A stretch of 64,000 nucleotides of DNA from Tubulanus polymorphus. Taxonomy: Eukaryota; Animalia; Nemertea. Numbering within the stretch: the stretch's first letter is position 1; the number at the start of each line of letters is the position of its first letter. A program made the translations under genes and the position numbers. The DNA lies in assembly GCF_964204645.1 (NCBI RefSeq), contig NC_134029.1, positions 19,214,950 to 19,278,949 on the forward strand, in the 5' to 3' direction. Positions 42,008-64,000 of the stretch are shown here, in pieces. Under the pieces are notes generated by a model. The model had not been told where the DNA came from and ran no database searches. It worked only from the letters and a program-made list of their open reading frames with translations.

Positions 42008-43554
42008 ATGGCCGCGCCCATGAAACGTGGAACGAAAATGCATGTGCTTGAAAATGTGGACAAAAATCTCCAAAAATACACCGACAAACCGGAGATATTT
42101 TTAAGGTATAGCAATCTTGATTTACGATAATTCTGCTGTTTGTTTGTGCGGCTTGTATATCCCTTAATGATGAAATGACTCGTCAAATTTCAATTCAATC
42201 AAATTAAATTCAAGAAAAAGAATTAAGCACTTATTCTTCGCTCCTAGTCCACTGTCTTCTTTGTAAGCGTTATTTCGTTGCGCTAATGGTGAATGCATTA
42301 TTTTACTTAATGGATCAACATTGATAATTGCTCAATGCAAACAATAGGGCCTACCTGCCTTTTTTTAAATTATACCGCTGCCGATAAGTAGCGCTACTAA
42401 TTTACTCTACTTTTATTTTTTATCACCACTGCGAGTACTGGTAGATCCGAAAATTCATTTAATCATATTCTAAATCGGTCTTAATCGTTGCATTTTCTCT
42501 ACATCTGAATTATTTCAGCACCCAAAAGACGGTCGAGAAGGGGATGAAATCATGTACGAAAGAACTATATGATTTCATGAAAGAGTTCGACTCAGCCGCC
42601 GACTCTAACAGTACCGACGCATTGCCCGAATTGATTGTCGAAAATTTCGACGACGAACAAATTTGGCAGGAAATCGAACTTCAAAACGATCCGCACATCA
42701 GTGGACTCGTGAAGGGTTTGTCTCAATTGATCGCGTTTAAAGGCGATCTGAATTTGCAATTAGCGGACGATGATGATGTCGGACGCGGTGAGAATGAAAG
42801 CGATCAGGAGGAATCGGACCAATCCGAGGATGATGGAAGCGATTCGGAATTCGATGCGGACAATCTCGAAAATGAAACTTACGATTTCGACGATGAAGAT
42901 ATCGATGAATTCGATTTATTAAGAAAACCCGGTGAGGAGTTAGATGACGATGAAGATGACAGTAGCGACATTGGCGAGGATGACGGCGAATGCGGTCGAA
43001 AAAAACTGGTATCGAAGAAACGACGTAAAACTGTCGTCGATGAAAAGTTTTTCAAAATGGCCGACATGGAGGAATTTTTGGAGATGGAAGACGCGAAAGA
43101 AGAGAGACGCTTGAATGGCGACGATGTAAATGATGCAGGAGATATTGATTATTTCACCGAAATTGGCAGCGACGATGAAGGGGATGACGTAGAAGGGGTA
43201 AGTGAAGAGGTAAGGAAATACAGCGTCGCCATTTGAACGGCGGTTGCCTTTCTGTTATCATTCTGCGGTTCAACTCTTGGATATAGTCGATAGTCATATG
43301 CTCAATTGAGTAAACCTAGCTTACCTCGGAATAACTGGGACCGACAAAATCGGTCTGAGGTAAACGAAGTCTGAGTAAATGATTGGAAAATACGTTTAGA
43401 AGTCAAAAAAAATTTTGTGTTGGACATGTCCGAGTAGAGAGAGGTTTACTGTCTTCAAAAATTGGTTTCGTTTATTTTAGGGTAAAAAAGATACCAAGTA
43501 TGGCGACTTCTTTGATTTACCAGAAGGAGAAAATAAGAAAAATGATAGCAATGG

Positions 43555-43587
<33 letters not shown>

Positions 43588-46500
43588 GAATGATGATGGT
43601 GATGAGGAAGAATCTGGGTATGATTTGGGAAAATTGTTGAATAAGCCAAATCTATCCGATTCCTGCTAATTATAGACCTATTCTTTTTCATTGTAGCTTC
43701 AATTTAGAAGATGTTGATGAGGATAATGAAAATGATGACAAAATAAAACACATACCTTTCAAAACTGCGAAACTGTTGTCCGACGACGAAGAAGATAACG
43801 ACGCGTCTCAGAAATCATCGTTTGAAAAGCGACAAGAAAGGGTATGAAATATCATGGAGGCTATCATCCATTTCAAGGGTCTTAATCCACCTCAATTCTT
43901 ACCTACTTCCCTATTTCACATTTTGAATTGGAGCATTAGATTTAAAAGAAATTGTAAACGAGACAGTCAAATTGATAGAATGGAACCTCTTTTATAATGA
44001 ACTCGGATACAATGATTCATCGGATATAACAAATATAGAATTTCGTCCAAAGTATGTTAGACAATTTGATTAATTTCATACTGGATATAACAAACTATCG
44101 GTTATAACGAACATATTTTCTGGTACTGTGTAAGTTCATCGTTACAAAGTTCCGCTGTAGAGCAAAAAACAAACAAGGCGAATTATATTTGAAGATAACA
44201 AGAGAAATCCCACAATAAGTTCAGCCAAAACGAGAAACTTGAATAGAAGAGTTATATATATTTGCGCAACGTTTCGGCTAAAGACTATTAGCCATCATCA
44301 GGCGTACTGAGTACAGGAGAATATTACAAGATATTTATACAAGACCAAAACAATAGAAGCAGAGTGAGTGATTAAATTTGGTCTTGTATAAATATCTTGT
44401 AATATTCTCCTGTACTCAGTACGCCTGATGATGGCTAATAGTCTTTAGCCGAAACGTTGCGCAAATATATATAACTCTTCTATTCAAGTTTCTCGTTTTG
44501 GCTGAACTTATTGTGGGATTTCTCTTGTTATCTTCTTACACGGATATTGTGTATCTTCTCGTCTCATATTTGAAGATCATCAATCCATTATCCACTTCTA
44601 TTGAGCTTTGGCCATGCGGTCCCTGAAATGAATTTCGGTGTGTTTGTGTCATCGCGATATTCTTACCTTCAGTTGCAAAAGCGCATAAGAGAAATGGAAG
44701 ACGTCGCTTTGATGGAGAAACCGTGGCAGCTGTCTGGTGAGGTGACCGGTGGTAAACGTCCTGAGAATAGTCTGCTTCAAGAAAACGTACAGTTCGACCA
44801 AACGGCAAGACCAGGTTAGAACTACTGAAATGATGACGATTAATAAATAAGTAGAGTTATGTTAAACAACGAATATACATGCAAATCTACATTAGATCAG
44901 TTTGATTCTGATTGTGGATAGCGATATCTGGGTAGATTCTACTGCTAAATATGATGTGTGTACCATTTGTAATTTTGGGTTGAAATACTCTATTTTCAGC
45001 TCCAGTCATTACAGAAGAAACGACTAAGCAGTTAGAAGATCTAATAAAGCAGCGCATTAAAGATCAGGTTTATTATCAATCGAGACGTTCTTTACTAGAG
45101 TTAAGGTATTACAATCGGAATGACGTTTGACGGGACTAATTTTCGGTTAATATTTGCATGTAGGCGTGGGATGATGTCACGCGCAAGATTAAACCAAAAG
45201 ATGCGCCGTACGAGTACAAGAAGCGCATCACACTCGATCAGGAAAAGAGTAAGATTAGTCTCGGCGAAGTTTACGAACAGGAATATATAAAACAGACGGA
45301 GGTAAATTGGCCGTTTTGACTGGAATTTCATTTGCCTCACCTGGAATTGATCGTGGTTCTGAAATCGATGATCTGTTCACATTTTAGGAAGAGGCTGAAG
45401 AGAAAGCCGACCCGCAACATGAGGAAATCAAGAAAATGCTGGAATCGCTGTTCATTAAGTTAGACGCTCTTTCTAATTTCCACTATACTCCGAAACCAGT
45501 AAGTATACTGTTCTGTTTTACAAAATGAATCCAAGCGAAACAAAAAATGCATTTAACCTTCTGTAAGTCGGATAAACACTTAAGTCAGAAGAAAAGGTCG
45601 AATATGGCTATTTTCTCATTCGGAAATATATTTTTGTCCCAAAATTGCATATTTGAAATCGGGAACTTACTTGCCTAAGTTGGTAGTATTCTTACGGTGC
45701 GAACAATTAGGATTGTATCAAAACAACTATGGTAGCTGTATGAAGCTATTCATGTGATATTCCCGTCATTGAACCAAACATGCTACAATACAGGGAATAC
45801 ATGTAGGCCCCGCCTCTGATTCAACAAGATAAGTTGAGACGTGCTACATATAAGTTAAAGACCTAAGATTAAACACTCATTTTTTCGAAAGTTTGAAATT
45901 CTGACTTTCTCATACTCAGAATTTTTCTAATTCAAAGAAAATGATCCAGTTGCGAAAGATGCAAAATACGCATGGTTTACTGTATCAGCGTGAAATCATT
46001 GATGTTGATTCAGAATCTGGCTTCTATATATGATAGAGACTTAATGGCTTAAAATCTGTTCATTTCAGGCTATGCCAGAGGTAGAAATAGTCAGTAATTT
46101 GCCGTCAATAGCGATGGAAGAGGTTGCGCCAGTCAGTGTTAGTGATGCAGCGATGTTGGCGCCTGAAGAAATCCAGGTGAGAAAAAAGATAATCTATAGT
46201 ATTATGAAGTGAAATTTGCTCATTCTGTATGAGTTAGGTTGATATTGTCCTATTTTTTTTGTACGATACTTCTAGAAATGTTGTACAAATTCAACCTTGT
46301 GTAGAATACGTTGAACGAGACGGATAGTGCTTTATAAGTTAATTTGTTTATTTGAAGTACGGGCTTTCGCTACTGATGTATATTAACTTTATCAGTGAAT
46401 AAAATCTCTCATTCACGTGATGAAGCTACAATACATTGGTGGCGAAAAGCTCATATTTTATCAGATATCTTGTTTATATGTATGAGCTTTCAATACTAAT

Positions 46501-48137
46501 GTAAAGTAGCTTCATCAGGTGACTGAGAAATTTTCTTCACCTGATGAATTTACAATACATTAGTGGCAAAAGCTTGTACTTCAAATGAACAAATTAACTT
46601 ATAAAGTACTTTCCGTTCCGTTTTACACGTAGAAGAAATTAAAACTTCTCTAGTTCGAGCAGAACCATGTGTTTTATCAGGGTCCCTACGACTCCTTGAT
46701 TCCTTAAAAACTCCTAAACAGAAATTACTTTTAAAGGTACTTGAAACTCCTTTAATTTGGGCAAAATGCCCAAAACTCCTTTGAAACTCTTCAATTTTGA
46801 GAAATAGGCAACTAAGATATTTGTTGTTGCACAATAAACTGTGCCTGAATCGATACTGTTGGATTTTCACCAGGATTCTTTAGTAATGTAAAGCATGAAA
46901 ATTTGCTTACAAAACCACAGAATTATCCGTTCACCTAAATAGCTTAAACAGTACCAATTTAGGAGCAGTTTACAGTAATTGGAATATAAAAGTGATGCAG
47001 AATTTGAAATTTCCTCCTTGAAATCTCCTTATATCCGGCAATGACCAATCTGTAGGGACCCTGGTTATTCTGATTCATATCGATGCTCCATTCATCATGA
47101 TTTTCATCATTCATCATTTTTTGTGTTCAATCTCAAGGAGAAGAATCGCGGCATCGAAATCGGAAAAAGCGAACGAACCGAAACCGACAAGAAGCGCGAT
47201 CGACGTAAGATAAAAACGGCGAAGCGCAAGAAGATCAAGGAGAAAGAACAACGCGAGAAACTCGTCGAAAAAATCAGACCGGGTTTGGGTAACAAGTACA
47301 GTAAAGAACGAGCGCTTTCCGAACTAGAGAAGGCTAGTAAAGCAACGGATAAACTCAGCCTCATTAAGGTATATTTCAGAATATGATCAGATTTTATAGT
47401 ATGGATACTGAGTAGGGTTCATGATGGAACCTCTTTAGGATGAATGTGATGTAACGAATTATTGAATTTAACAAACCTAGATTTTTGTCCACAATGGTCC
47501 GCTGATCGCTGGTCCACCGAAGTTTGTTGTACTACCGCGGTACTTTTCACCTCGTTCAGGATATTCAAAAACATTTTATGTGTAGTTTTATCTTTCCTTC
47601 TTGAGTGAAAAGTTTTTTCAAACAGTTGAATAGATAAGTAGATTAATTTCGTGATTGCAACAGAAAGAAAGTGGAGAAAGCCAAATTAAAGTTGAGGAAG
47701 CTCTATAACAAAAATGTTTGATACAATGTAGACTCTATAATCAGGTCTACTTGGAATGACCCAAGGCTGTATATTTGACATATACATTTTTGGAAAGCCT
47801 TTCAATTTTCTTGATCCTCAAGTAGATATCTAGATATCTAGATAACTTGGTGGCCAACATTACTGGATAAGGCAAAGTCCACTAAACTAATGAATTGTTC
47901 ATCTAACTGATGTCAAATGAAGATTGAATGCTTGCATACATGTACGAAACATTTATCGTAGTTGTTGCTTATGTATATTTCTAGGATAAATCTAGTTCTG
48001 CTAAAAAGTCTCTGACCTCGTCGAAACAGTTCTTCAACCAATTGCAAGATGAAGTTACGTCCCATATAAATCGTCAGAAAGGGGCGCCGCAAGTGAAGAA
48101 AAAGCAAAAAAGTTCCGCTACAAAATTGATGTTGTAA
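42008..48137 (+). CDS. MPHOSPH10: U3 snoRNP protein MPP10, 11 exons, ~669 aa
   Basis: Exons 42008-42105, 42519-43197 (alt donor 43209), 43481-43617, 43697-43841, 44673-44814, 45000-45067, 45164-45301, 45388-45498, 46069-46176, 47138-47368, 47985-48137; sum 2010 nt. Mpp10 motifs [119 protein letters not shown] at 48181. Confidence 0.95.
44191..44535. mobile_element. Inverted Penelope-like pLTR remnant (159-bp arms, 27-bp spacer) in MPP10 intron 4
   Basis: 44191-44349 is the reverse complement of 44377-44535; each arm holds a minimal hammerhead core, as is typical of Penelope-like element pLTRs. Confidence 0.75.
44420..44463 (+). ncRNA. Minimal type I hammerhead ribozyme motif (mirror copy 44263-44306 on minus)
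   Basis: CGC-CTGATGA-T-GGCTA(ATAGTCTT)TAGCC-GAAAC-GTT-GCG: conserved core boxes, 5-bp stem II, palindromic AACGTT in place of stem III, short stem I CGC/GCG. Confidence 0.7.
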
Positions 48138-49535
48138 AAGTGAATCTAGAAATATTTTGTATATAAATAAATTAATTGTAAATAAAACTAAAAGTATTTA
48201 GAATCATTGACTTGCTGGTATTTTTTTGGAAGATTGCAGAAGTTAGAATATTCATATATTGGAATCATTGCCATCCTGTATCGTGGCGTATCCGAATTTT
48301 TGCGAATCAATCGGGATGAATTGACTCGTCAGGGCCGTACCTGGCATTATAATTTTTTTTGGTGGGGGGGGGGGAGGTACCTGAAAAAGGGCAATTCTAT
48401 AGGATAAAACAAATTGTAAAACTGCTCTTTCCAAAATTTCTTGGGGGAGGGCCTTGCAACCCCCCCTTTAAATACGGCAAGCCATCATTCTGCTCATATC
48501 ACCTTGATTAACTTAAAATCGTCTAACGTCGGATATCTCGTTCGTGGTGTAAGCAAATAACACATTCAACGGTTGCGTTTACTAAAATTTAAATTTCGTG
48601 AATTCAAAAATTGAAACGTAACTAAAATAACTACCGTATTTGACTCGTATTGCACGTCTTCCACTCGGGAGTAATTTTACTTAGTCGGTGATTTAACCGA
48701 ATGTGAGTTTGCTACAAGAAAGAACTCCGTTTACAAGACTAAAACCAAAGGGTAGGTTACCCTCGGGATACTTCCTAATAGGCATGAAGTGGGGAACCAT
48801 TTATAGGTAAAACTTCATGTTTCCAGGAGGATTTCGACCCCGAAAAACTTATAATCACATCCTTCCTAGACAGAGATTCGAACCTGATGGAATCGCTCGA
48901 CTCGCTTGTATCCAAATTTCGAAAAATCTTGACAAAACGTTTCCGACACTGACATTTTGAAGTGCACATAGAGAAGTTTATTAGGCGTTCGTTCGCAGGA
49001 ATCCCTCCCTGGATCCGTCACTGGGCAGGCCCTCGTTCCGTGGCGCGAGTCTCGATACCACCAGGTTCTTGCCTAGGGAGGATGTTATAATCACAGATGT
49101 ATGACCGCTGTTAGGATGGTGCGTTCGTTGCACGCGAAGTACATCTGCGAAAAAGATTAAAACATCATGTGAGAAGTTAATATTCAGGAAACCTGTACGA
49201 TGCGAAAATAATTAGAAATCGGCATGTACGACACGTGGAAACATAAAACTGAAAATTGCTGCATTTATAGATTGGTTGGTAATTACTGGGAAGCTCGTTA
49301 TTTTTGTCATTTTAGAATCTCGGAAAATCGAACTTTTAATGATGGATCAGATATCGCTCAAAGATAATCAGCGGCTGAAAAATTGAGAATTCTGTATTGC
49401 TGAGGGAAGTGAATAATTCCAAACATACGTTAGTATAATCTGTTAAGAGCGGCCTTAGCCTGGCGTGACAACCAAGCTGTGGAATTCAAATAGTGAAGGA
49501 ATTTTGTTCTTTGTATCGTAAAGAAATTGTTCGTT

Positions 49536-52500
49536 ATGAATCGGCAGCTGTGGGGGCTGTTTATAGCGTCAATGATCCTCTGTCAAGTTTGCATCGCACG
49601 CGCTGATCGCGTAGAATCTATCGAGGAATCGTCAGTGACGGTAAGTTCGTCTTGTAACAACACGTGGTACCCCATCGATTCTACATCTGGTTATATCGTT
49701 TCACCAAATTATCCTTCGTTAACACGCGGCGTTGAATGTCGCTGGTTAATCAACAGCTCTTTACCAGGAGCCGTTCAAGTTTACTACGACATCGATCCGT
49801 CAATATTCTGTAGTGACAACTACCTTCTCGTCCATGAGTCTGATAACAGATTGTGCGGTGATGGAAAACATGATATCCGCAGTAGCGATTTTATACCGTT
49901 GATGTTTAGGAGTAACGTCGATGGTGCGCGGGGTAGCCGGGTTTTTGTCATATATCGTTACGAACGAAACCGATTGAGAATTAGTCACAACTGTCGATAC
50001 AACTTCTATTTAGATAAACTCAATTCGTCAACTGGTTATAAATTCTTCTTGAAAAGACGAGGGATGCCTAATTGCAAATTATTTTTGAATCGGATCGGAA
50101 TATCACGGGATTATGCGATGAATCTCACATTCATTCAGATCATACTCAAATATCAACCTAGACGTCAATCTACCACTAAAATCCACGATGGATGGAATAG
50201 CAGTGATCCCATTGGTATTATACGAAAACAAACTGGATATCCACCATCATCATTTTATACAAAAACAAACAAAGCCCTCATTTCTTTAAATGTTCCAACT
50301 CAGTTCAAGCTTTTTGTTCAGCTGTATAAGATATCAGATTGGAACGTCTCTAATCCATTGATTCGGATCTCAGATAACGAGTCGTCGGGAGTGCTCATAC
50401 CTAGTGACAAGAGCTTACACGTAATAACCCGATCAAAACACTTACACTGCTGGTCTATCACAGTGCAGGTATTACAGTACGTCATATTCAACTGGACCAG
50501 TGATCTCATCATATCCGGTGACGTCATTGCTGTATATAAACTAGAAGGATTACGTATTGTAGGAACTGATATCTTGCTCGGTTACAACTACTTGGAATCA
50601 TTGAATGTCAAAACCGACGGCTTTCTCGTCATACTATGCGTTTTATTGAGGATGGAAGCAGAAAAGTTGCTACAAAAGTTCAACTATGAAATTAAATCGC
50701 ATTCTTTAGAAGACATGTACGTCTACAAATACCGAGTGAGTATTAGGCCTAAATGATATACTTGAATGCATGTGTTACCCGATTTCTCTTATAGAAGTGT
50801 TTCTATTTTCCAGGTGTTATACTGGCGTGCTCACTATTTGAGACATTCCCAACTTTTTCAATACAAAACGAAATCGATTTACAGAATCAAACGTTTTGAT
50901 TTTAAATGGAATGTCAATATCTATGAAGAAACGGACTTTCAATTTTCAGTTTTATCAGAGAACTGTGAGCGAGCTGGATTTTATATATATGATGGTGGCA
51001 ATTTCACAGCTAGACGCTGTGGTCCGTATTGTCCTGGTTCAAAGGAAGGAGGTTACGGTCGATCTATGATCAGCCTGGTTACATCAGGAGGACCGGTTCT
51101 TATAGTAGCATACGCATACAAATACCTGCCGAGAAAATCTCCGTCAAGACTAGTTATTCGCTCTACTGACTGTGACGGGTATGTTCTACAAGAAGGTGAA
51201 CGTCAAATCAATATAACGTCACACTGTCTTGTGATTACACCAGAAACCCGACGCATTGTTTTCACAAATATTCAAGTGTTATCAAAAAAAGAATATGAAA
51301 TTGGTGATTGTTTGCATAATATTGCACCATCAACAATGAGCTGCAAACGGATCCTAAGTCTCAAGAGTGATATACTGAATAACAGTGTCGTATCGTATAC
51401 CGTGAAATTACGATTTAATAACGCATTGCTGAACTATCGATTTATAATCAAACTGCAAACCAAATGTCAGAGGTTGAAAAAGACTCGAAAAGACTACACG
51501 GGGGTGATGTCCTTCGTAAAGAATGAATGTGGTTTGATACAGTCAGATAATTTCCCAGAAAATGCCGGATATAAACTTCAAACTGTATACTATGCATTCG
51601 GTTGGATGGGATACATTAATTACTTTTATAGATTTTATAGATTCATAATAAAATACATAAGCAAGAGAGTGCCATGTATGGGATCACCAGGATTAGACAA
51701 AACCCCAATCATTCTCAAACAATTTGTTAATGATATATCTAGAAGACAGATCACGCACGAATATAAAATATGCGATAAAAGAGCCGAAGTGGGTACTGTA
51801 TTTTACAGCCTTCTTAGTTACAACTTAGGGCTCGAGGTAAAAAGTCGAGTCCCAACATTTCGAATACAATATACATTTGAAAGACCGCCATCAATAGATA
51901 CGCGTGATAGACCGTGTCGTTCAAAATTTCGGGATTCGGGAATTTCATGCGTAAACTATATCAGAGATGAACGTCTGAATTGGGAGAATGCAGAATTGTA
52001 CTGTAGGCAGAAGTTTGCGGGACATTTACTCAGTGTCAACTCAGAACAGGAAATGACTTCCATGAAAAAATTATTCGCTACATCCTTTCTGCATAATGCA
52101 TATTCACAGAAAGCACTCCTAATGATGATTGGATTAAAACTGCAGGTGAATCAGAATTGAAAATAAGTTACATATGGGAAGTTTTCATATAAGAAAACAG
52201 TGTATTTTATCTTCTATTTTGATTTTTTTTCAGCCAAGTTCTGGTCATTACACGTGGACTGATGGGAAACCATTAAGCTACACTGAGTGGTATAAACCTA
52301 CAAATAACGACACGATACCAGAAGTATTACAAGGATTCATATCTCCTTTAAGAAAACAACCGATAAATGACGTCGATATGCCATGTACAGCGATGGTACT
52401 AAATAATCCACGAGGATCGGCGAACTGGTTTCGATTCCCCTGCAAATTCGAAGAGGTTCACTCGAGTTTCATGTGTGAAACAGAAAGAATCGAAAATTTT

Positions 52501-55485
52501 AAGAATGTAAATGCAAAGTTTACATCTACGAACAATGAAACATATTTGATAGGACAAAATGTATTTCAAGACGCCGGTTTCAATGAATCGAGTTGTTCGA
52601 TTGGTTGGGTAAGCATAAATAAACAATGCTATCAAATACTGACAGACTGGAACAAAGATCGAGTTTTAGATATGATAACTGCGGCAGCGATGTGTCATGC
52701 TATCAATGGTGAAATAGTTACTGCTACGATAAGTTACACAGAAACTGAAACTATGAACTTAGTAAGAACATTTAGCTACCAGCCTGTATATAGCTCTATA
52801 CTAACAATGGCTTCTAATGATAGACTGCTAATTATAAACCCAAAAATAACTAGAGATGAAATAACTTATATTCAATCAGTTAAATGGACGACGAAACAGT
52901 TTGATAATGCGACAGATACAGCGCACTCTGTCTTGTGTTCTTACAACGCAACTAGTGATACGTTAGCTTCTACAAGCAGTTGTAAATCGTGGCAGTTTAA
53001 ATGTAACGATCAAAGATGTATTAGTGACCATCGTGTATGTGACACCAGACACGACTGTCATCACGGTGAAGATGAATTCAACTGTACGGATATAAATAAT
53101 CTATATAGTCAGTTTCAGTGCTATGATGGCCAGGTCATATCAATGAGTGGTTTCTGTGATTTCATGCACGATTGTGCGGATGGTTCTGATGAGAACTCGT
53201 GTTTTCATCCCGCGTGTTTGTCCGAACAATTTCGCTGCAACAGTGGGCGATGTATCAGTCGGTCAAACAGGTGTGACGGAGTCACTGATTGTAAAGACGG
53301 CTCCGATGAAAGTGGATGCACCGCTCAACTGTGCCAGGGGTTCTTGTGTAACAGTGGTGACTGCATTAGTTCTCAGTTGTATCAAGATGGTGTCGTGGAT
53401 TGCAGTGGAAGCCTCGAAGAAGATGAATTAGTGACAGCTACTAATGTTACAATGAATCCTACGATTGAATGCAATAATGAGAACCATTGTACATTTAACT
53501 TCACAAATCTCTGTAAAGCTTCGGACGAACAAAGATGTTCTTTCAATTCTCCGCATTGTTATGCAAGACGTCATAGATGTATTCTAGAAAGAACAGCAAA
53601 TGGTAACCCAGTTTGTAGAAATCTTGAGCACGTATTGAGATGTGAAGAATTTGAATGTCCAGCTAGTACCGTAAAATGTCCAACATCGTACTGTATACCA
53701 ATCAGACAGGTATGCGATGGTCAATCAGATTGTCCTAATTCAGAAGATGAAAAAAACTGTGAGACATTTACATGCCCACGTATGTTCAAATGTGGCCAGG
53801 AAAATCGATGTATTCCACAATCTGAAGTTTGTGATGGCGTCATAAATTGTAAGCATACAACTGATGACGAGGCTTTCTGTAACGTCACCTGTCCGAGAGG
53901 TTGTACATGTCAAGGCTATTTAATTGATTGTAAAAATACTGGTTTAACAGATATCACTCGCCTTTTCCCACCATCAACTCGGGTTTTGGTTTTATCAAAT
54001 AACCGAATCATCTTGAACGCGTCGACGTTATCGTTATTTGTCTATCTTCGTATGCTCAACATCTCCTCCAATGAATTTTCCTATATTTTACCAAACTTGT
54101 TCAAAAACCTGAATAATTTACATACATTAGACCTAACGTATAACAACATAAGATCATTATCCACAAACACATTCACTGGTTTATATAGTTTGAAAGAGTT
54201 ATTCATAACTGAAAATCCACTACGTCATTTGATGGACGATACCTTCCAAGATTTGAAGTCACTTAAAGTTCTTAATCTTGATGGACTTTCCTTATTGGTG
54301 CTTGGTAGAAATGTATTTCGAGGTTTATCTACATTACATTCGTTGAATATCAGCACTAACAGAATCAATCGTATTTCAAGATATGCATTTTCTGGATTAA
54401 CTTCACTTGAAATGCTAGATATAACCAATAACTACAAAGTTATTTCTGTCGACAAAGATGCTTTCAACAACATGACATCTCTAGTCTTTCTAACGTCTGA
54501 TGCTTACAAATTTTGCTGCATGGCTCCTAATGTTGACCAGTGCCTTCCTGAAGCTGACCAATTTTCCTCCTGTTCTGATCTGATGGGTAATACAGCCCTT
54601 AGAGCTATCATCTGGGTAATCGCTGCATTTAGTTTTTTCGCTAATGGAATTGTCATTTCTCTTCGCATTCATGCGATATGTTTCTCCTCAAATCCATCCT
54701 CAGACATCATCATCATTAATGTTGCTGTGTGTGATTTCATGATGTCTATATATCTATTTTTGATCGCGGGAGCCGATCACATTTATAGAGGTATTTACTT
54801 CCTAAATTCAGAATCATGGACGGACAGTTTGTATTGTCGTCTTGCGGGGGTCGTGGTGTTTATTTCTTGCGAAGGTTCATTGACATTTTTGCTGGTAATG
54901 ACGCGTCACAGATTATCAAATATAGTTAATCCATTTTCTGGAAACCCGATTACATCTATAAGATATGTGTGCGTGATTTGTTGTACCTGTTGGATTGTCT
55001 TAAGTGTCATTGCACTACTACCACTTATGCCAGTCCCATACTTTGGAAGCAACTTCTACGGTACTACAGGAGTTTGTTTACCTATGAATTTAATTTCAAT
55101 TGATGTTAGTGCCTGGCAATATTCATTCGCTATTTTCTCTTTATCCAACTCGCTCATACTAGCTACGATAATGGGGACTTATTTTCAAATGTACAGACTC
55201 GTATCTGGAAGCAGGTCTGGTTCGGGTAGAGCTGATCCTACCGAACTGATTCTGGCACGTAGGAGTTTGGTAATAAATCTTTGTAATTTATTTTGCTGGC
55301 TGCCGTTAATAATTGTTCAGTTTTGCGCGGTATTTCGTGTAGAAATACCGAATCAGGTGGCGGCTTGGCTAGCGGTTCTTTTCTTACCGATAAACTCGTC
55401 TCTCAATCCCCTTCTTTACACTATACTGACTATTGATATGAAATCCATACGAGCTAAAACTAAACGCTGGCAACATAGAAAATGA
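49536..55485 (+). CDS. GRL101-like LDLa/LRR rhodopsin-class GPCR with N-terminal CUB-like and C-type lectin domains, 3 exons, ~1927 aa
   Basis: Three supplied ORFs join in phase 0: 49536-50735 (GTGAGT donor), 50814-52145, 52234-55485; introns 78 and 88 bp. Signal peptide MNRQLWGLFIASMILCQVCIARA; CUB (GYIVSPNYP..CRWLI); CTL (LNWENAELYC..GHLLSVNSEQE..IGL..WTDGKPLSYTEW); multiple LDLa (CDGVTDCKDGSDE); LRRs; hinge YKFCC..C.P..DQFSSCSDLM; 7TM with LPINSSLNPLLYT. Confidence 0.9.
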
Positions 55486-56797
55486 AAATAAAATAGCTAC
55501 GTGTATATTCCTACCCAGGAATGGAGTGGCATTACCAGTCAGTACGATGTTTCAATTGTATTTTCTGGTGGGGATATTTCATGTTAGAACATAATTTCAT
55601 ACGTGTACTAGACACCACACTAAGAATATTTAGTTCACCGATTTTTCCACATTTAATGTTTATCATCACTTTCACTGATGCAATGTTAGTACTTCGTATC
55701 GATAATGGAAACAATGAATGCTTTGACTGGGTATCAAGTGTCAATATCTGCAATGAATGTGGGGGAGATATTATGATGGCTGACACGATATAACAATTAA
55801 TGAACGCATTTTTTTTTCGCCCGGATAATTAAAACTTTATCGGTTTCGCAGGTAAAAAAATTTCTCGGTCAAGAAAACCAAACCTTTTGATTTTGACTTC
55901 TCGTGCTAGAAAATTTGCGTTTATATTAAAGTTTATGATCGTGCGTTAAGGCATACCGAAATACTATGCGTATTTTTTTAGTATAGCTCGTATTAGCTAC
56001 CGTAGGTAACAGCTTGCTCATTTATTTACCTGGCACTCGCTAATAAATCAAGTCAGGTACCACTGCGAAGACGCGAAGACAACCCGAGGGGATGACAACT
56101 GAGCTATAGTTCTTTTGATCTTAAAATATGGATTGTCCCTGTTATTTATTTGGTTGGTAAATTTCGTTTGATTTTTTGATTGGATGTCCCTTACAGACCC
56201 ACCACCTGCCGGAAGCGAAACAGGGGTTTGATTTTGAAATCGGACTCGGAATTCGAAGTACAGATATAGTTGTGTGATCGGCGGTCGAGTTTACAAAAGT
56301 ATTTTGTTTAAATCGAAGTACATAATTGGGAAATTCGGTTCCGGTTCATTCAAGCAATCTTCCATTCAGTCTGAACCGGCAAGCGACCGATTGGGTTGAA
56401 TTTTCTTGGCTGCCTAATTTAATACATCGAAATTTTGGAAATAGCTATATTACAAGGTTGAAGATCATTTTGTCCATTTTCAATTTTTTCTGTCGTTTTC
56501 TATACGTGTAAATAGTCCGATAGTTTATTTTAGTTTTTTTTCGGATAGGTGTTGATGTAGAAGTCCTCTAAGTTGATTTTCCTGCGTTTTGACTAGATAG
56601 AAAGGAAGCACATTTCGAAACGCTAATTTTCCAGATGAGAGTATCCGAAGTGTAGTTGTATGACATCGACGGGGCAGCTCCGATAGGATGGGTATCTCCG
56701 TCAAGGGGTGCGCAGTTGATACTTCACATCTGGTGCTGAGTTTGCCTAAAAATAAAAGTTGTACACAGGGAGCAGTTTTGTGTTTCTGATGAATGTA

Positions 56798-56876
56798 GGA
56801 AAAATGGCCAAGGAAAGAATGGCCAAGGTATTTGCCCAGGAAAAAATGGCCACGGAAAAAAAGGCCAAGGAAAATT
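56798..56876 (+). repeat. Modular 14-15-bp GGAAAAA(A)TGGCCAA repeats, candidate terminus
   Basis: ggaaaaatggccaa / ggaaagaatggccaa / ggtatttgccca / ggaaaaaatggccac / ggaaaaaaaggccaa / ggaaaatt read directly. Confidence 0.85.
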
Positions 56877-56970
56877 TATGAGAACTACTGACAATGTTAA
56901 TAAACATTAAGCTTTCAATTTAATGACATCATTTATTTTTCATGGGGCTAAAACAATCAAAATCGGTATA

Positions 56971-57244
56971 ATGAGTTCAGAAATTTGATGAACTTACATT
57001 TAATTTCATTGCATATAATATACAGTGCATAGGTGGATGCGTAGATGAGAGTGAGTTCCAACTAGAAAACAATAATGTCAATAAAAATCAATATTATTGT
57101 CAATATTGTAAAAAATACATCGATAAATCTTACATGGAAAATGTTAGAAATTATATTGATTCACTAGAAATAAAAGATATAATTAAAATTTTAGAAATAT
57201 TACGTAATAAAATTGTGACACACATAAACAGTGAGTGCGCGTAA
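56971..57244 (+). pseudogene. Small Cys-motif ORF, apparently frameshifted just after its ATG
   Basis: Open frame 56975-57244 (VQKFDELTFNFIAYNIQCIGGCVDESEFQLENNNVNKNQYYCQYCKKYIDKSYMENVRNYIDSLEIKDIIKILEILRNKIVTHINSECA*) has no early ATG; the ATG at 56971 is one base out of frame. Confidence 0.4.
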
Positions 57245-57309
57245 CAACAGCTGCTTTTTTTTTGCTTTTTTCCAAAAATAAACACACTTTTTAATATAAA
57301 AGCGCTAAT

Positions 57310-57592
57310 AAAATGATAAAATTGTTCAATATTAAAAGTGTGAGTAAAGTGTGAGTAAAATAATTGAGATTTTCAATATTAAAAGTGTGAGTAAAGTGTG
57401 AGTAAAATAATTGAGATTTTCAATATTAAAAGTGTGAGTAAAGTGTGAGTAAAATAATTGAGATTTTCAATATTAAAAGTGTGAGTAAAGTGTGAGTAAA
57501 ATAATTGAGATTTTCAATATTAAAAGTGTGAGTAAAGTGTGAGTAAAATGATAAAATTGTTCAATATTAAAAGTGTGAGTAAAGTGTGAGTA
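57310..57592 (+). repeat. 47-bp tandem repeat, ~6 copies
   Basis: Unit AATATTAAAAGTGTGAGTAAAGTGTGAGTAAAATAATTGAGATTTTC starting 57328, 57375, 57422, 57469, 57516, ~57563; internal AAAGTGTGAGT doublet. Confidence 0.95.
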
Positions 57593-57609
57593 ATAATTTT
57601 GTTATAAAA

Positions 57610-58523
57610 ATGAAGAAAGAAGAACCCAACTTCAAAATCGAAATCAATGAACCCAATAAATCATTTTCACAGTTTAACATTAAAAATTATATTTCAGCAA
57701 CAAATTTAGTGTCCGCAAGACATTATAAAATTGATAATATTACTGTAATTAATCAAATATTATTAAATGAAACTTATTTAATTACTGAACTAATAGATAC
57801 TTTAGATAATGGCGCCAAAAATCCTAAAATATTTAATACAGTTTTAAATTATAAAGGTAATTTAGATGAAAACATAATAAATATTCTTAAATGTCCTTTT
57901 AATGAAAGAGAAAGTGATATAATACTTTCAAAAGGTAATGATAGGATAGACTTAAGAATTGAAAAACGACAATTATATTATTATAATTTTGATAATAAAC
58001 AAATTATCTATAATGAAAATTCATCAAATATTGGAATTCAATGTGATTTAGATAATGAAAAATCATATAAAGATGTTGCAGTTCAATGTAACTTAGATAA
58101 TGAAATTGTTACGCCTAAATATGAACCTAATGAAAAAGTGTTATGTGATTGTGGAAAATATTATACTCGAAGCAATAAATCCCACCATCTTAAATCAAAA
58201 TATCATAACTCGAAATTAATAATTCAACTCTAAAAATCAAAACAAATAACATAAGAAAAGACTTAACAACATTAAAACATAATTTTGATTTTCGCAATTA
58301 TCCCAAAGATCATGAACTATTTAGCAATGATAATAAAAAGATTCCGGATTTAGAAAATAGTAAATCTTTTAAACATATCGCAATTCAATGTGATTTAGAA
58401 AATGAATTCAAAAGATTTAATCCTAATGAAAAAATTCATTGTTATTGCGGAGGTAAATATTCAAAATCACATAAATCAAAGCATTACCAAACAATTAAAC
58501 ATAAAAACTGGTGTAAAGAGTAA
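57610..58523 (+). pseudogene. Intronless virus-like double C2H2 zinc-finger protein split by a -1 frameshift near 58209
   Basis: ATG 57610, first frame to 58233 ends ...PNEKVLCDCGKYYTRSNKSHHLKSKYH. An overlapping ATG-less frame 58209-58523 ends ...IAIQCDLENEFKRFNPNEKIHCYCGGKYSKSHKSKHYQTIKHKNWCKE*, repeating the QCDL + PNEK + CxCG..H..H module. Confidence 0.65.
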
Positions 58524-58596
58524 CAATTCTACATTGAAAATAAATTAAATAGTCAAATAATTATTGAATTTAGTTAAATGATTTAAATATTTAATA

Positions 58597-60772
58597 GACT
58601 GTTGAAATGATAAATTGTTTGGCTGTTAAAATGATAAATTGTTTGACATTTGAAATGATAAATTGTTTGACTGTTGAAATGATTTGACAGTTGAAATGAT
58701 AAATTGTTTGACAGTTGAAATGATTTGACAGTTGAAATAATAAATTGTTTGACAGTTGAAATGATAAATTGTTTGACAGTTGAAATGATAAATTGTTTGA
58801 CAGTTGAAATGATAAATTGTTCGACTGTTGAAATGATAAATTGTTCGACTGTTGAAATGATTTGACAGTTGAAATAATAAATTGTTTGACAGTTGAAATG
58901 ATAAATTGTTTGACAGTTGAAATGATAAATTGTTTGACAGTTGAAATGATAAATTGTTCGACTGTTGAAATGATAAATTGTTCGACTGTTGAAATGATTT
59001 GACAGTTGAAATAATAAATTGTTTGACAGTTGAAATGATAAATTGTTTGACAGTTGAAATAATAAATTGTTTGACAGTTGAAATGATAAATTGTTTGACA
59101 GTTGAAATGATTTGACAGTTGAAATAATAAATTGTTTGACAGTTGAAATGATAAATTGTTTGACAGTTGAAATGATAAATTGTTTGACAGTTGAAATGAT
59201 TTGACAGTTGAAATAATAAATTGTTTGACAGTTGAAATGATAAATTGTTTGACAGTTGAAATGATAAATTGTTTGACAGTTGAAATGATAAATTGTTTGA
59301 CTGTTGAAATGATAAATTGTTTGACAGTTGAAATGATTTGACAGTTGAAATAATAAATTGTTTGACAGTTGAAATGATAAATTGTTTGACAGTTGAAATG
59401 ATAAATTGTTTGACAGTTGAAATGATAAATTGTTTGACAGTTGAAATGATAAATTGTTTGACAGTTGAAATGATAAATTGTTCGACTGTTGAAATGATAA
59501 ATTGTTTGACAGTTGAAATGATAAATTGTTCGACTGTTGAAATGATAAATTGTTCGACTGTTGAAATGATTTGACAGTTGAAATAATAAATTGTTTGACA
59601 GTTGAAATGATAAATTGTTTGACAGTTGAAATAATAAATTGTTTGACAGTTGAAATGATAAATTGTTTGACAGTTGAAATGATAAATTGTTTGACAGTTG
59701 AAATGATAAATTGTTCGACTGTTGAAATGATAAATTGTTCGACTGTTGAAATGATTTGACAGTTAAAATAATAAATTGTTTGACAGTTGAAATGATTTGA
59801 CAGTTGAAATAATAAATTGTTTGACAGTTGAAATGATAAATTGTTTGACAGTTGAAATGATAAATTGTTTGACAGTTGAAATGATAAATTGTTTGACAGT
59901 TGAAATGATAAATTGTTTGACAGTTGAAATGATAAATTGTTCGACTGTTGAAATGATAAATTGTTTTACAGTTGAAATGATAAATTGTTTGACAGTTGAA
60001 ATGATTTGACAGTTGAAATAATAAATTGTTTGACAGTTGAAATGATAAATTGTTTGACAGTTGAAATGATAAATTGTTTGACAGTTGAAATGATAAATTG
60101 TTTGACTGTTGAAATGATAAATTGTTTGACAGTTGAAATGATTTGACAGTTGAAATAATAAATTGTTTGACAGTTGAAATGATAAATTGTTTGACAGTTG
60201 AAATGATAAATTGTTTGACAGTTGAAATGATAAATTGTTTGACAGTTGAAATGATAAATTGTTTGACAGTTGAAATGATAAATTGTTCGACTGTTGAAAT
60301 GATAAATTGTTTGACAGTTGAAATGATAAATTGTTCGACTGTTGAAATGATAAATTGTTCGACTGTTGAAATGATTTGACAGTTGAAATAATAAATTGTT
60401 TGACAGTTGAAATGATAAATTGTTTGACAGTTGAAATAATAAATTGTTTGACAGTTGAAATGATAAATTGTTTGACAGTTGAAATGATAAATTGTTTGAC
60501 AGTTGAAATGATAAATTGTTCGACTGTTGAAATGATAAATTGTTCGACTGTTGAAATGATTTGACAGTTGAAATAATAAATTGTTTGACAGTTGAAATGA
60601 TTTGACAGTTGAAATAATAAATTGTTTGACAGTTGAAATGATAAATTGTTTGACAGTTGAAATGATAAATTGTTTGACAGTTGAAATGATAAATTGTTCG
60701 ACTGTTGAAATGATAAATTGTTTGACAGTTGAAATGATAAATTGTTTGACAGTTGAAATGATAAATTGTTTA
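58597..60772 (+). repeat. 24-bp minisatellite with interspersed 17-bp variant (left arm)
   Basis: Unit TTGACAGTTGAAATGATAAATTGT; variants TCGACTGTT, AATAAT and 17-mer TTGACAGTTGAAATGAT; block 59338-59759 recurs at 60143-60564 (805-bp offset). Confidence 0.97.
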
Positions 60773-60895
60773 GCTGTAAATTTAATTGTTATTTGATTTA
60801 ATCATTTAAAAGTTTAATATTTTAAAAATGATTTTAAAATATTTAAATAAAAACAAGCAAATGTTTATTAATTTTCTAATTTCTTTCTTAAATAA

Positions 60896-61114
60896 ATGGA
60901 TGGTTTCATTCCAACTGGGAAAAGTGATTTAAAACATTATTTAGTTGCTGGAGGTTTAATTTTAGCTGCGCTTTACTTTTATTATGAAAATATTTCAAAA
61001 GATTTAATAAATGAAAATAATAAATTAAGCAAGAAAATAAAGAAGTTAAATACTAAAAATGGAAATAATTATAAAAACGGTAATAATCACAAGAAAGTTG
61101 TTGAATCAGATTAA
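60896..61114 (+). CDS. 72-aa hypothetical membrane protein (left-arm copy)
   Basis: TAAATG start; hydrophobic helix YLVAGGLILAALYFYY followed by a basic/Asn-rich tail; intact mirror copy on the other arm. Confidence 0.6.
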   Translation: MDGFIPTGKSDLKHYLVAGGLILAALYFYYENISKDLINENNKLSKKIKKLNTKNGNNYKNGNNHKKVVESD

Positions 61115-61150
61115 ATAGTGAATTAATCTATTAAAATCTTTTCTTATTAA

Positions 61151-61432
61151 ATGAGTGAAAATATATTAAATTTGTTAAATCTTATTTACAGAAATCAAGA
61201 GAAAATGAAATTAATTATGATGATTTCAGGGTTACTTTCATTTTCAGTTTATAGTTTGAAACAATTGTTTCATTTTTATGATGATTGTAAAATAAAATAT
61301 ATTGAATTGAAAAATAATATCAATTACATTTCAGATAGAATGAATAATATTAAAAGATGCGAAATTTGTAGTAAAAAATACAAGACGGAAAAAGGATTTA
61401 GAAATCATAAAATTGGGCATAAATTGGAATGA
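61151..61432 (+). CDS. 93-aa hypothetical protein with hydrophobic segment and C-terminal C2H2 finger (left-arm copy)
   Basis: TAAATG start; LIMMISGLLSFSVYSL; CEICSKKYKTEKGFRNHKIGH fits C-x2-C-x12-H-x3-H. Confidence 0.65.
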   Translation: MSENILNLLNLIYRNQEKMKLIMMISGLLSFSVYSLKQLFHFYDDCKIKYIELKNNINYISDRMNNIKRCEICSKKYKTEKGFRNHKIGHKLE

Positions 61433-61869
61433 TTAAATAACAAATTAAAGTAAAGAATTTAAAAAAAATCTCATTTATTGTGTAAAATTGAAATACTTTG
61501 AACTACGACTAAAATTAAACTAAAATAGACAACTTTGTTTATCTAATGAAATTTTAGTTATATTTTAGTTGAATTGTAATTAAAGTTAGTTGCAACTAAC
61601 TTCAACTAGAATTTAACTAGAATTGACTAAAAATTTAAAAAGATTAACAAGACAGTTGATTTAGTGTATTTTTAGTCAATTCTAGTTAAATTCTAGTTGA
61701 AGTTAGTTGCAACTAACTTTAATTACAATTCAACTAAAATATAACTAAAATTTCATTAGATAAACAAAGTTGTCTATTTTAGTTTAATTTTAGTCGTAGT
61801 CCAAAGTATTTCAATTTTACACAATAAATGAGATTTTTTTTAAATTCTTTACTTTAATTTGTTATCTAA
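61433..61869. repeat. Non-coding palindrome core with 33-nt asymmetric centre (61635-61667) and nested hairpins
   Basis: Arm AATTGACTAAAAAT ends 61634 and its mirror starts 61668; perfect 20-bp palindrome AAGTTAGTTGCAACTAACTT at 61583-61602 and 61700-61719. Confidence 0.95.
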
Positions 61870-62151
61870 TCATTCCAATTTATGCCCAATTTTATGATTT
61901 CTAAATCCTTTTTCCGTCTTGTATTTTTTACTACAAATTTCGCATCTTTTAATATTATTCATTCTATCTGAAATGTAATTGATATTATTTTTCAATTCAA
62001 TATATTTTATTTTACAATCATCATAAAAATGAAACAATTGTTTCAAACTATAAACTGAAAATGAAAGTAACCCTGAAATCATCATAATTAATTTCATTTT
62101 CTCTTGATTTCTGTAAATAAGATTTAACAAATTTAATATATTTTCACTCAT
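61870..62151 (-). CDS. 93-aa C2H2 protein (right-arm copy)
   Basis: Identical translation to 61151-61432. Confidence 0.65.
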   Translation of the reverse strand: MSENILNLLNLIYRNQEKMKLIMMISGLLSFSVYSLKQLFHFYDDCKIKYIELKNNINYISDRMNNIKRCEICSKKYKTEKGFRNHKIGHKLE

Positions 62152-62187
62152 TTAATAAGAAAAGATTTTAATAGATTAATTCACTAT

Positions 62188-62406
62188 TTAATCTGATTCA
62201 ACAACTTTCTTGTGATTATTACCGTTTTTATAATTATTTCCATTTTTAGTATTTAACTTCTTTAATTTCTTGCTTAATTTATTATTTTCATTTATTAAAT
62301 CTTTTGAAATATTTTCATAATAAAAGTAAAGCGCAGCTAAAATTAAACCTCCAGCAACTAAATAATGTTTTAAATCACTTTTCCCAGTTGGAATGAAACC
62401 ATCCAT
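62188..62406 (-). CDS. 72-aa membrane protein (right-arm copy)
   Basis: Mirror of 60896-61114 with one I->L change (61037 vs 62265). Confidence 0.6.
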   Translation of the reverse strand: MDGFIPTGKSDLKHYLVAGGLILAALYFYYENISKDLINENNKLSKKLKKLNTKNGNNYKNGNNHKKVVESD

Positions 62407-62529
62407 TTATTTAAGAAAGAAATTAGAAAATTAATAAACATTTGCTTGTTTTTATTTAAATATTTTAAAATCATTTTTAAAATATTAAACTTTTAAATGA
62501 TTAAATCAAATAACAATTAAATTTACAGC

Positions 62530-64000
62530 TAAACAATTTATCATTTCAACTGTCAAACAATTTATCATTTCAACTGTCAAACAATTTATCATTTCAACAG
62601 TCGAACAATTTATCATTTCAACTGTCAAACAATTTATCATTTCAACTGTCAAACAATTTATCATTTCAACTGTCAAACAATTTATCATTTCAACTGTCAA
62701 ACAATTTATCATTTCAACTGTCAAACAATTTATTATTTCAACTGTCAAATCATTTCAACTGTCAAACAATTTATTATTTCAACTGTCAAATCATTTCAAC
62801 AGTCGAACAATTTATCATTTCAACAGTCGAACAATTTATCATTTCAACTGTCAAACAATTTATCATTTCAACTGTCAAACAATTTATCATTTCAACTGTC
62901 AAACAATTTATTATTTCAACTGTCAAACAATTTATCATTTCAACTGTCAAACAATTTATTATTTCAACTGTCAAATCATTTCAACAGTCGAACAATTTAT
63001 CATTTCAACAGTCGAACAATTTATCATTTCAACTGTCAAACAATTTATCATTTCAACAGTCGAACAATTTATCATTTCAACTGTCAAACAATTTATCATT
63101 TCAACTGTCAAACAATTTATCATTTCAACTGTCAAACAATTTATCATTTCAACTGTCAAACAATTTATCATTTCAACTGTCAAACAATTTATTATTTCAA
63201 CTGTCAAATCATTTCAACTGTCAAACAATTTATCATTTCAACAGTCAAACAATTTATCATTTCAACTGTCAAACAATTTATCATTTCAACTGTCAAACAA
63301 TTTATTATTTCAACTGTCAAATCATTTCAACTGTCAAACAATTTATCATTTCAACTGTCAAACAATTTATCATTTCAACTGTCAAACAATTTATTATTTC
63401 AACTGTCAAATCATTTCAACTGTCAAACAATTTATCATTTCAACTGTCAAACAATTTATCATTTCAACTGTCAAACAATTTATCATTTCAACTGTCAAAC
63501 AATTTATCATTTCAACTGTCAAACAATTTATTATTTCAACTGTCAAATCATTTCAACTGTCAAACAATTTATCATTTCAACAGTCAAACAATTTATCATT
63601 TCAACTGTCAAACAATTTATCATTTCAACTGTCAAACAATTTATCATTTCAACTGTCAAACAATTTATTATTTCAACTGTCAAATCATTTCAACTGTCAA
63701 ACAATTTATCATTTCAACTGTCAAACAATTTATCATTTCAACTGTCAAACAATTTATTATTTCAACTGTCAAATCATTTCAACTGTCAAACAATTTATCA
63801 TTTCAACTGTCAAACAATTTATTATTTCAACTGTCAAACAATTTATCATTTCAACTGTCAAACAATTTATTATTTCAACTGTCAAATCATTTCAACAGTC
63901 GAACAATTTATCATTTCAACAGTCGAACAATTTATCATTTCAACTGTCAAACAATTTATCATTTCAACTGTCAAACAATTTATCATTTCAACTGTCAAAC
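62530..64000 (-). repeat. 24/17-bp minisatellite, inverted (right arm), runs off window
   Basis: Reverse-complement unit ACAATTTATCATTTCAACTGTCAA. Confidence 0.97.

Follow-up and report, generated by a model that had tools for sequence, protein, structure and literature searches.

The window, by which we mean the whole 64-kb stretch of DNA analysed here, consists in its host part of animal DNA, as judged from ORF translations and a domain scan that revealed cadherin exons, Mpp10 and an LDLa-LRR receptor. The large cadherin exons, recognised from their translations, occupy 3691-39721 on the minus strand and Mpp10 lies within 42544-48969 on the plus strand; these two genes mark the host as an animal. 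Further to the right, three abutting plus-strand ORFs of 406, 464 and 1103 aa (49536-55485), with matches to CUB (weak), LDLa (six), LRR and 7tm_1, look like one large receptor gene split into three pieces with almost no introns, the 464-aa ORF lying outside the domain scan.

At about position 57000 the GC content drops from 0.40 to 0.19-0.25, which marks the beginning of an AT-rich insert (GC of 0.23 in 57020-58596 versus 0.40 in 1-56700). From left to right, the insert carries an 89-aa frame, a 47-bp array, frames of 207 and 104 aa, a 24/17-bp array and ORFs of 72 and 93 aa, and all of the insert ORFs are oriented toward the centre of a giant palindrome. The 89-aa open frame (56975-57244, plus strand), which contains a CxxC and has no ATG at its start, gives the approximate left end of the insert, and this end is probably truncated. 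Immediately to the left of it we observed five copies of a 15-bp repeat (56800-56874), which resembles a transposon subterminal repeat and may be the outer end of the element or a separate insertion. Repeat finding placed 5.7 tandem copies of the 47-bp unit at 57325-57593 (plus strand). The 207-aa ORF that follows (57610-58233, plus strand; from the ORF list and domain scan) ends in a CxC...H...H zinc-finger tail, and the 104-aa zinc-finger frame (58209-58523, plus strand) is its paralogue, the two forming a tandem pair (57610-58523) whose common part is the C-terminal zinc finger. Repeat finding also delineated the minisatellite array, which has 95 units of 24/17 bp with higher-order repeats (58597-60771, plus strand).

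The non-array part of the left arm of the palindrome (60772-61634, plus strand) contains two small ORFs. The 72-aa ORF (60896-61114, plus strand; mirror copy at 62188-62406, minus strand) has an N-terminal hydrophobic stretch resembling a membrane anchor, and the 93-aa ORF (61151-61432, plus strand; mirror copy at 61870-62151, minus strand) combines a hydrophobic stretch with a C2H2-type zinc finger. The right arm (61668-64000, minus strand) leaves the window within its tandem array; this mirror array (62531-64000, minus strand) aligns with the left array over 62 units without a mismatch, with four unit-level gap events between them.

Domain scans of the ORFs detected no transposase, replication or integration gene in the visible insert. 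No Rep family was found in any of the five insert ORFs scanned (5/5), the longest non-array frame in 56900-62530 being 216 aa. The 93-aa ORF matched Pfam zf-C2H2_jaz with an E of 5e-4, below the curated cut-off. For the 207-aa ORF we obtained 20 unnamed matches at E<=0.001, none of them at 1e-10 and nearly all covering the finger only; in the 10 that were checked the names were absent or 'hypothetical'. The Atlas clusters nearest to this ORF consist of viral GIY-YIG and zinc-finger proteins, one cluster being mostly from Preplasmiviricota, and all score below 0.9. Word-index protein searches, among proteins of near length, returned no match for the 207-, 93- or 72-aa ORFs, and IMG/VR held no relatives of the 72- and 93-aa ORFs. 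In metagenomes the 72-aa ORF gave short matches only, at two loci (19 and 29 query residues), neither being a real homologue. PHROGs yielded nothing better than E 0.005 for the insert ORFs, and Rfam gave no matches in 56500-62600. IMG/VR gave no matches for the array and spacer patterns and one exact match to the 20-bp palindrome described below; the latter lies in GC-rich DNA with unlike flanks, and was taken as chance.

The arms of the giant palindrome (60595-61634 and 61668-62707, axis 61651) are near-identical, with three mismatches in the first 984 bp (at 61501, 61436 and 61037). Between them lies a 33-nt spacer (61635-61667), as the initial annotation had reported. Each arm also contains a perfect 20-bp palindrome (61583-61602 and 61700-61719), again in agreement with that annotation, and the 'about seven' AACTA(A/G)AAT-like motifs that it had noticed in both orientations correspond to seven RACTARAA motifs in 61500-61634, five forward and two reverse, a density of 52 per kb versus 0.28 per kb in 1-56700. 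Further perfect palindromes are found at 61257-61272 and 62030-62045 (16 bp each) and at 13917-13936 (20 bp); the last of these sits in host DNA, and so a 20-bp palindrome by itself is not exceptional in the window. A 9-mer common to the spacer and the array unit was considered as an iteron and rejected, being at chance level (573 of 5000 shuffles).

The spacer is also part of a second symmetry, an AT-rich (21% GC) imperfect palindrome of 172 bp, hereafter H (61506-61678), with its axis at 61592/61593. The symmetry of H runs through the whole spacer, which falls entirely within its right arm: 68 of 86 letters pair between 61507-61592 and 61593-61677. The tip of H is the 20-bp palindrome at 61583-61602. 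H folds with -27.2 kcal/mol on one strand and -25.2 kcal/mol on the other, compared with shuffle means of -13.6 and -12.3, and none of 100 shuffles folded as well on either strand. All six neighbouring windows of 173 nt were weaker (-10.0 to -18.0 kcal/mol). The left-arm hairpin likewise folds better than chance on the plus strand (z of -3.3 to -3.8), and the folding model gives a plain hairpin as the best fold of the full centre. Within H the spacer pairs with 61516-61550; in this register 27 of 5000 shuffles scored as well. The test was anchored to a register selected on the basis of the data, and when the spacer was aligned locally to the arm with no anchor, no signal emerged (1025 of 2000 shuffles as good).

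The last 11 letters of H (61668-61678, plus strand) have two possible partners. Nine of the first 10 pair with 61506-61516, in the full register of H, and all 11 pair with the nearer 61624-61634 (plus strand), our candidate for a mis-register priming site. When forced, the near-register fold reaches -24.1 kcal/mol versus -27.2 kcal/mol for the full H register, and the equilibrium pair probability in the model is 0.006 for the near versus 0.98 for the correct register. Since the correct register dominates at equilibrium, mis-priming would be rare or kinetic. Fold-back copying from the near register reproduces the arrangement in the window exactly, with its 33-nt loop, 117-bp duplication and near-identical arms. 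The duplication is seen as a mirrored extra copy of most of H (61679-61796, minus strand), which contains the second 20-bp palindrome and has a 117-bp period (TRF reported period 117 at 61552-61767); a period of this length is expected if 61668-61678 switched from one of its two partners to the other.

The initial annotation is thereby confirmed in part: its letters are correct and its geometry was misread. It had regarded the spacer as non-random on account of an internal stem, AGATTAAC/GTTGATTT (61641-61648/61655-61662). This stem pairs as written, yet 344 of 5000 dinucleotide shuffles reach an 8-bp stem with no more than two G-T pairs; furthermore, the stem exists on a single strand only (4 bp on the opposite strand), and forcing it costs +1.5 kcal/mol in the fold of the full centre. 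Nor is the spacer structured by itself, given that 140 and 153 of 200 shuffles fold as well (z of +0.7). What is non-random about the spacer is its in-register partnership with 61516-61550 within H, not the internal stem. The 20-bp palindrome was described as nested in ATTTTAGTTGAA (61562-61573)...TTCAACTAGAAT (61601-61612); the axis of this pair is at 61587 versus 61592/3 for the palindrome, two letters are shared, and the nesting is not clean. A branched cruciform with self-folded 20-bp palindromes, which had also been proposed, comes out at -186.7 versus -205.7 for the plain hairpin, that is, 19 kcal/mol worse in the model. The suggested likeness of the centre to a telomere fits H, which is AT-rich and incompletely paired about 61592/3, but not the tip at 61651.

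Other copies of the element were present in contigs of three runs (X1, X2 and X3), all belonging to a single study of one organism; X2 and X3 do not cover the centre, which bears neither way, and no RNA run was among those listed as containing the element, which has no bearing on its expression. The window may itself derive from X1, rare variants are lost from contigs, and summed depth is not copy number. In X1, 277 contigs fall on 60775-62527, 47 of them with at least 99% identity, 74 with 95-99%, 84 with 90-95% and 72 with under 90%. The element is a diverged multi-copy family in the host. At the start of the 72-aa ORF (60893-60951 and its mirror) the summed X1 depth is about 10,700 and 11,600, versus about 460-1,740 at the centre, and the small gene therefore seems to be present in many more, and more diverged, copies than H. 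Among the variants listed for the 72-aa ORF (7 of 40 rows, from 146 in total), which fall on four sites, all four sites are synonymous third positions; for the 93-aa ORF, two of the six rows listed are synonymous.

The comparison of the centre was made in run X1 only and comprises 43 contigs, with eight of 44 pieces and 6 of 12 loose ends listed. Conservation among copies, which the initial annotation had named as a check, was seen for the spacer, which is common to many copies (depth of about 600) and free of variant rows at 61643-61667. It was not seen for the 20-bp palindrome: at 61599 a different letter, present in 461 of 1100 depth, breaks it, and 61593 varies too. At 61627 another letter (758 of 938 depth) breaks the perfect repeat round the spacer, and the listed rows contain no mirrored change at 61675. 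Three of the eight listed pieces enter the spacer (records 6, 7 and 8), where matching stops close to the end of H (at 61672, 61660 and 61673, respectively), and among the eight none bridges the spacer into 61679 and beyond. The deepest X1 contigs are short, lie outside the eight listed pieces and might contain the same junction as the window; the three long contigs come from diverged copies, with 9-13 differences. The deepest X1 contig lacks 17 letters at 61490-61506 (337 of 525 depth), at the left edge of H, so that subfamilies differ at the base of the hairpin. At 61540 and 61762 both arms of the window have a letter that is seen in none of the six X1 contigs there (971 of 971 depth differs). 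This letter, common to both arms, makes it likely that one arm was copied from the other.

The flip and flop isomers that had been anticipated are hinted at by two contigs, as distinct from raw reads, and one of the two can be explained by a deletion. Record 8 switches to the inverted arm at 61411, as would be expected of a flop isomer or of a junction with its centre in H, and equally of a 217-bp deletion from the form in the window. Record 4 joins the arm to several letters that characterise the other side of H (61559, 61571 and 61576, and a gap at 61561) and is without three further opposite-side letters (no rows at 61565, 61579 and 61582). These hybrid letters point to homology and exchange between the two sides of H.

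We consider it slightly better than an even chance that H forms the self-priming hairpin end of an AT-rich, multi-copy element of mobile or virus-like kind, and that the giant palindrome arose when this end folded 117 bases out of register and was then copied; the tip at 61651 is likely a fold-back scar. In the proposed sequence of events, H is predicted to fold as a long mismatched hairpin about 61592/3, and the reiterated RACTARAA motifs offer its last 11 letters the nearer partner at 61624-61634, at a modelled cost of about 3 kcal/mol. A free 3' end at about 61678 would have paired there, with the spacer looped out, and primed synthesis back along the element. Replication of such a hairpin-capped molecule would have produced the head-to-head duplex now in the chromosome; alternatively, a template switch at a replication fork would yield an identical junction. 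The arms would later have drifted by three substitutions and several gains or losses of array units, and the short motifs are putative binding sites for a protein of the element, for example a zinc-finger product. Fold-back priming at repeats of 5-9 bp is documented in the available part of PMC7999016, and that of PMC10766186 documents inverted junctions formed at short repeats separated by about 40-80 bp. Within the window we saw no flank or target-site duplication that would prove H to be an end.

The initial annotation had instead treated the three-axis centre as the family's standard functional junction, serving a palindromic replicon or concatemer as its origin or resolution site. The dense motifs in both orientations agree with such a role, as do the spacer common to many copies, without variant rows at 61643-61667, and the inverted arm that another diverged copy carries to the right of the spacer. 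The role is nevertheless unlikely, given that the spacer by itself is unstructured, that the branched form is 19 kcal/mol worse and no CRS lies near the centre, that the 20-bp palindrome and the repeat round the spacer vary, and that all three listed spacer contigs depart from the window's sequence before 61679. The summed X1 depths (451 in the arm, 604 in the inner arm and 594-632 in the spacer) also look nearer to 1:1 than to 2:1, a weak indication, as depth is not copy number; overlapping contigs could double the summed depth of the spacer, and a 2:1 ratio of arm to spacer would then be possible.

The ORFs within the arms, one of them with only synonymous variants among those listed, make it improbable that a Foldback-type DNA transposon, with a vestigial loop, a functionless centre and long composite TIRs, accounts for the entire palindrome. 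Such a transposon would account for the 15-bp subterminal-type repeat just left of the insert (56800-56874), but would leave H and its register shift unexplained; moreover, the visible insert has no transposase and its left end looks truncated. The long arms, with internal tandem repeats and unequal unit numbers between them, are in themselves like the Foldback-like TIRs described in the accessible portion of PMC3169594. It could also be argued that the palindrome at 61651 is a library or assembly artefact, namely an inverted amplification chimera or the wrong joining of a multi-copy repeat in assembly, with H nonetheless real. Fold-back chimeras are common after whole-genome amplification, according to the available parts of PMC13265396 and 10.1101/173872; none of the eight listed pieces bridges the spacer and 61679 onward, and identity between the arms is 99.7%, with a letter common to both that X1 lacks. 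The three site differences and four unit-level array events between the arms are, however, more than a fresh copy should show, even if a mixed assembly remains compatible with them, and an X1 contig also has the inverted arm to the right of the spacer, which leaves an artefact quite improbable.

Compared with known systems, partly by published descriptions, the element could not be placed in a recognised family. The pattern T6-N7-9-YAAAW, which we take to be that of the poxvirus concatemer resolution sequence (CRS), a feature adjacent to the poxvirus hairpin on either side, has eight matches in the window (6.7 expected) and none in 58435-64000, and near the centre, where a resolution site had been inferred by the initial annotation, there is no sequence of the poxvirus type. 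The CRS printed in PMC13668194 fits this pattern. The poxvirus hairpin telomere, as presented in the available portions of PMC8956199 and PMC13668194, is similar to H in form, both being AT-rich and incompletely paired. In the poxvirus layout (PMC8956199, Fig. 1 legend) the tandem repeats lie between the hairpin and the first ORF, whereas here H and the array are separated by two ORFs. In poxviruses the long arms are centred on the hairpin tip, whereas here the arm axis is at 61651 and the hairpin axis at 61592/3, although other copies may differ (records 4 and 8). Also unlike poxviruses, the element has no poxvirus gene and exists in many diverged chromosomal copies.

With the rolling-hairpin termini of parvoviruses, to the extent that they are covered by the accessible text of PMC1185569, the locus shares a terminal palindrome in duplex extended form, whose refolding would prime a dimer, and reiterated short motifs. 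Unlike these termini, the insert contains no NS1/Rep gene or known nick site, and has minisatellite arrays and small zinc-finger ORFs instead. The fold-back and ODIRA palindromes in the available parts of PMC7999016 and PMC10766186 resemble the locus in being near-perfect and giant, here with an 11-bp inverted repeat and a 33-nt unpaired spacer at the axis; the present case differs in that priming would have used an alternative register within an older imperfect hairpin of 172 bp belonging to a mobile element, which leaves three dyad axes 58.5 bp apart. Foldback and Mutator-like elements (Tm1, in the same portion of PMC3169594) likewise have long composite inverted arms with internal tandem repeats differing in number. 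The present element differs from them in its ORFs inside the arms and its structured centre; its outer ends and any target-site duplication, for which 8-10 bp would be expected in such elements, lie beyond the view of the window.

No polymerase, integrase, ATPase or capsid gene of the Polinton/Maverick type is found in the visible 7 kb, the Atlas match of the 207-aa ORF being only a lead. Polinton ends are protein-primed and are not known to be hairpins. Their features, as listed in the accessible text of PMC8969392, are a coding set within a 15-40 kb element, TIRs and a 6-bp TSD. The canonical Helitron end (a 3' hairpin, then CTRR before T, from the same text) was looked for and rejected: CTRR occurs at 61606, 61617 and 61627, in all three cases followed by A, and the element sequence continues.

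What merits following is the 172-bp hairpin with its mismatches, which belongs to an unclassified multi-copy element that carries genes; the structure is real and had been partly misread. Were the palindrome only a fold-back scar or an amplification chimera, the locus would be ordinary. Under our preferred reading, in which H is a terminal hairpin that folded out of register, the locus illustrates how a slip of register between repeated motifs of an imperfect hairpin can give rise to a giant palindrome, and a giant palindrome with a 33-nt loop may persist long enough for its arrays to diverge. A wider proposal, which we offer tentatively and regard as doubtful, is that an animal genome harbours a hitherto undescribed family of linear, hairpin-ended, virus-like DNA elements that would self-prime in the manner of poxviruses and parvoviruses from a mismatched 172-bp flip/flop hairpin, without the poxvirus resolution site, and whose head-to-head intermediates would integrate; the present locus would then be a fossil primed in the wrong register. 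In a limited body of literature, taken by title or the start of the abstract, we found no hairpin-ended or head-to-head elements in invertebrates or among animal transposons. The hairpin-telomere strategy is known from poxviruses and parvoviruses, and if H is indeed the end of a self-priming element, this animal would carry many chromosomal copies of a hairpin-telomere replicon.
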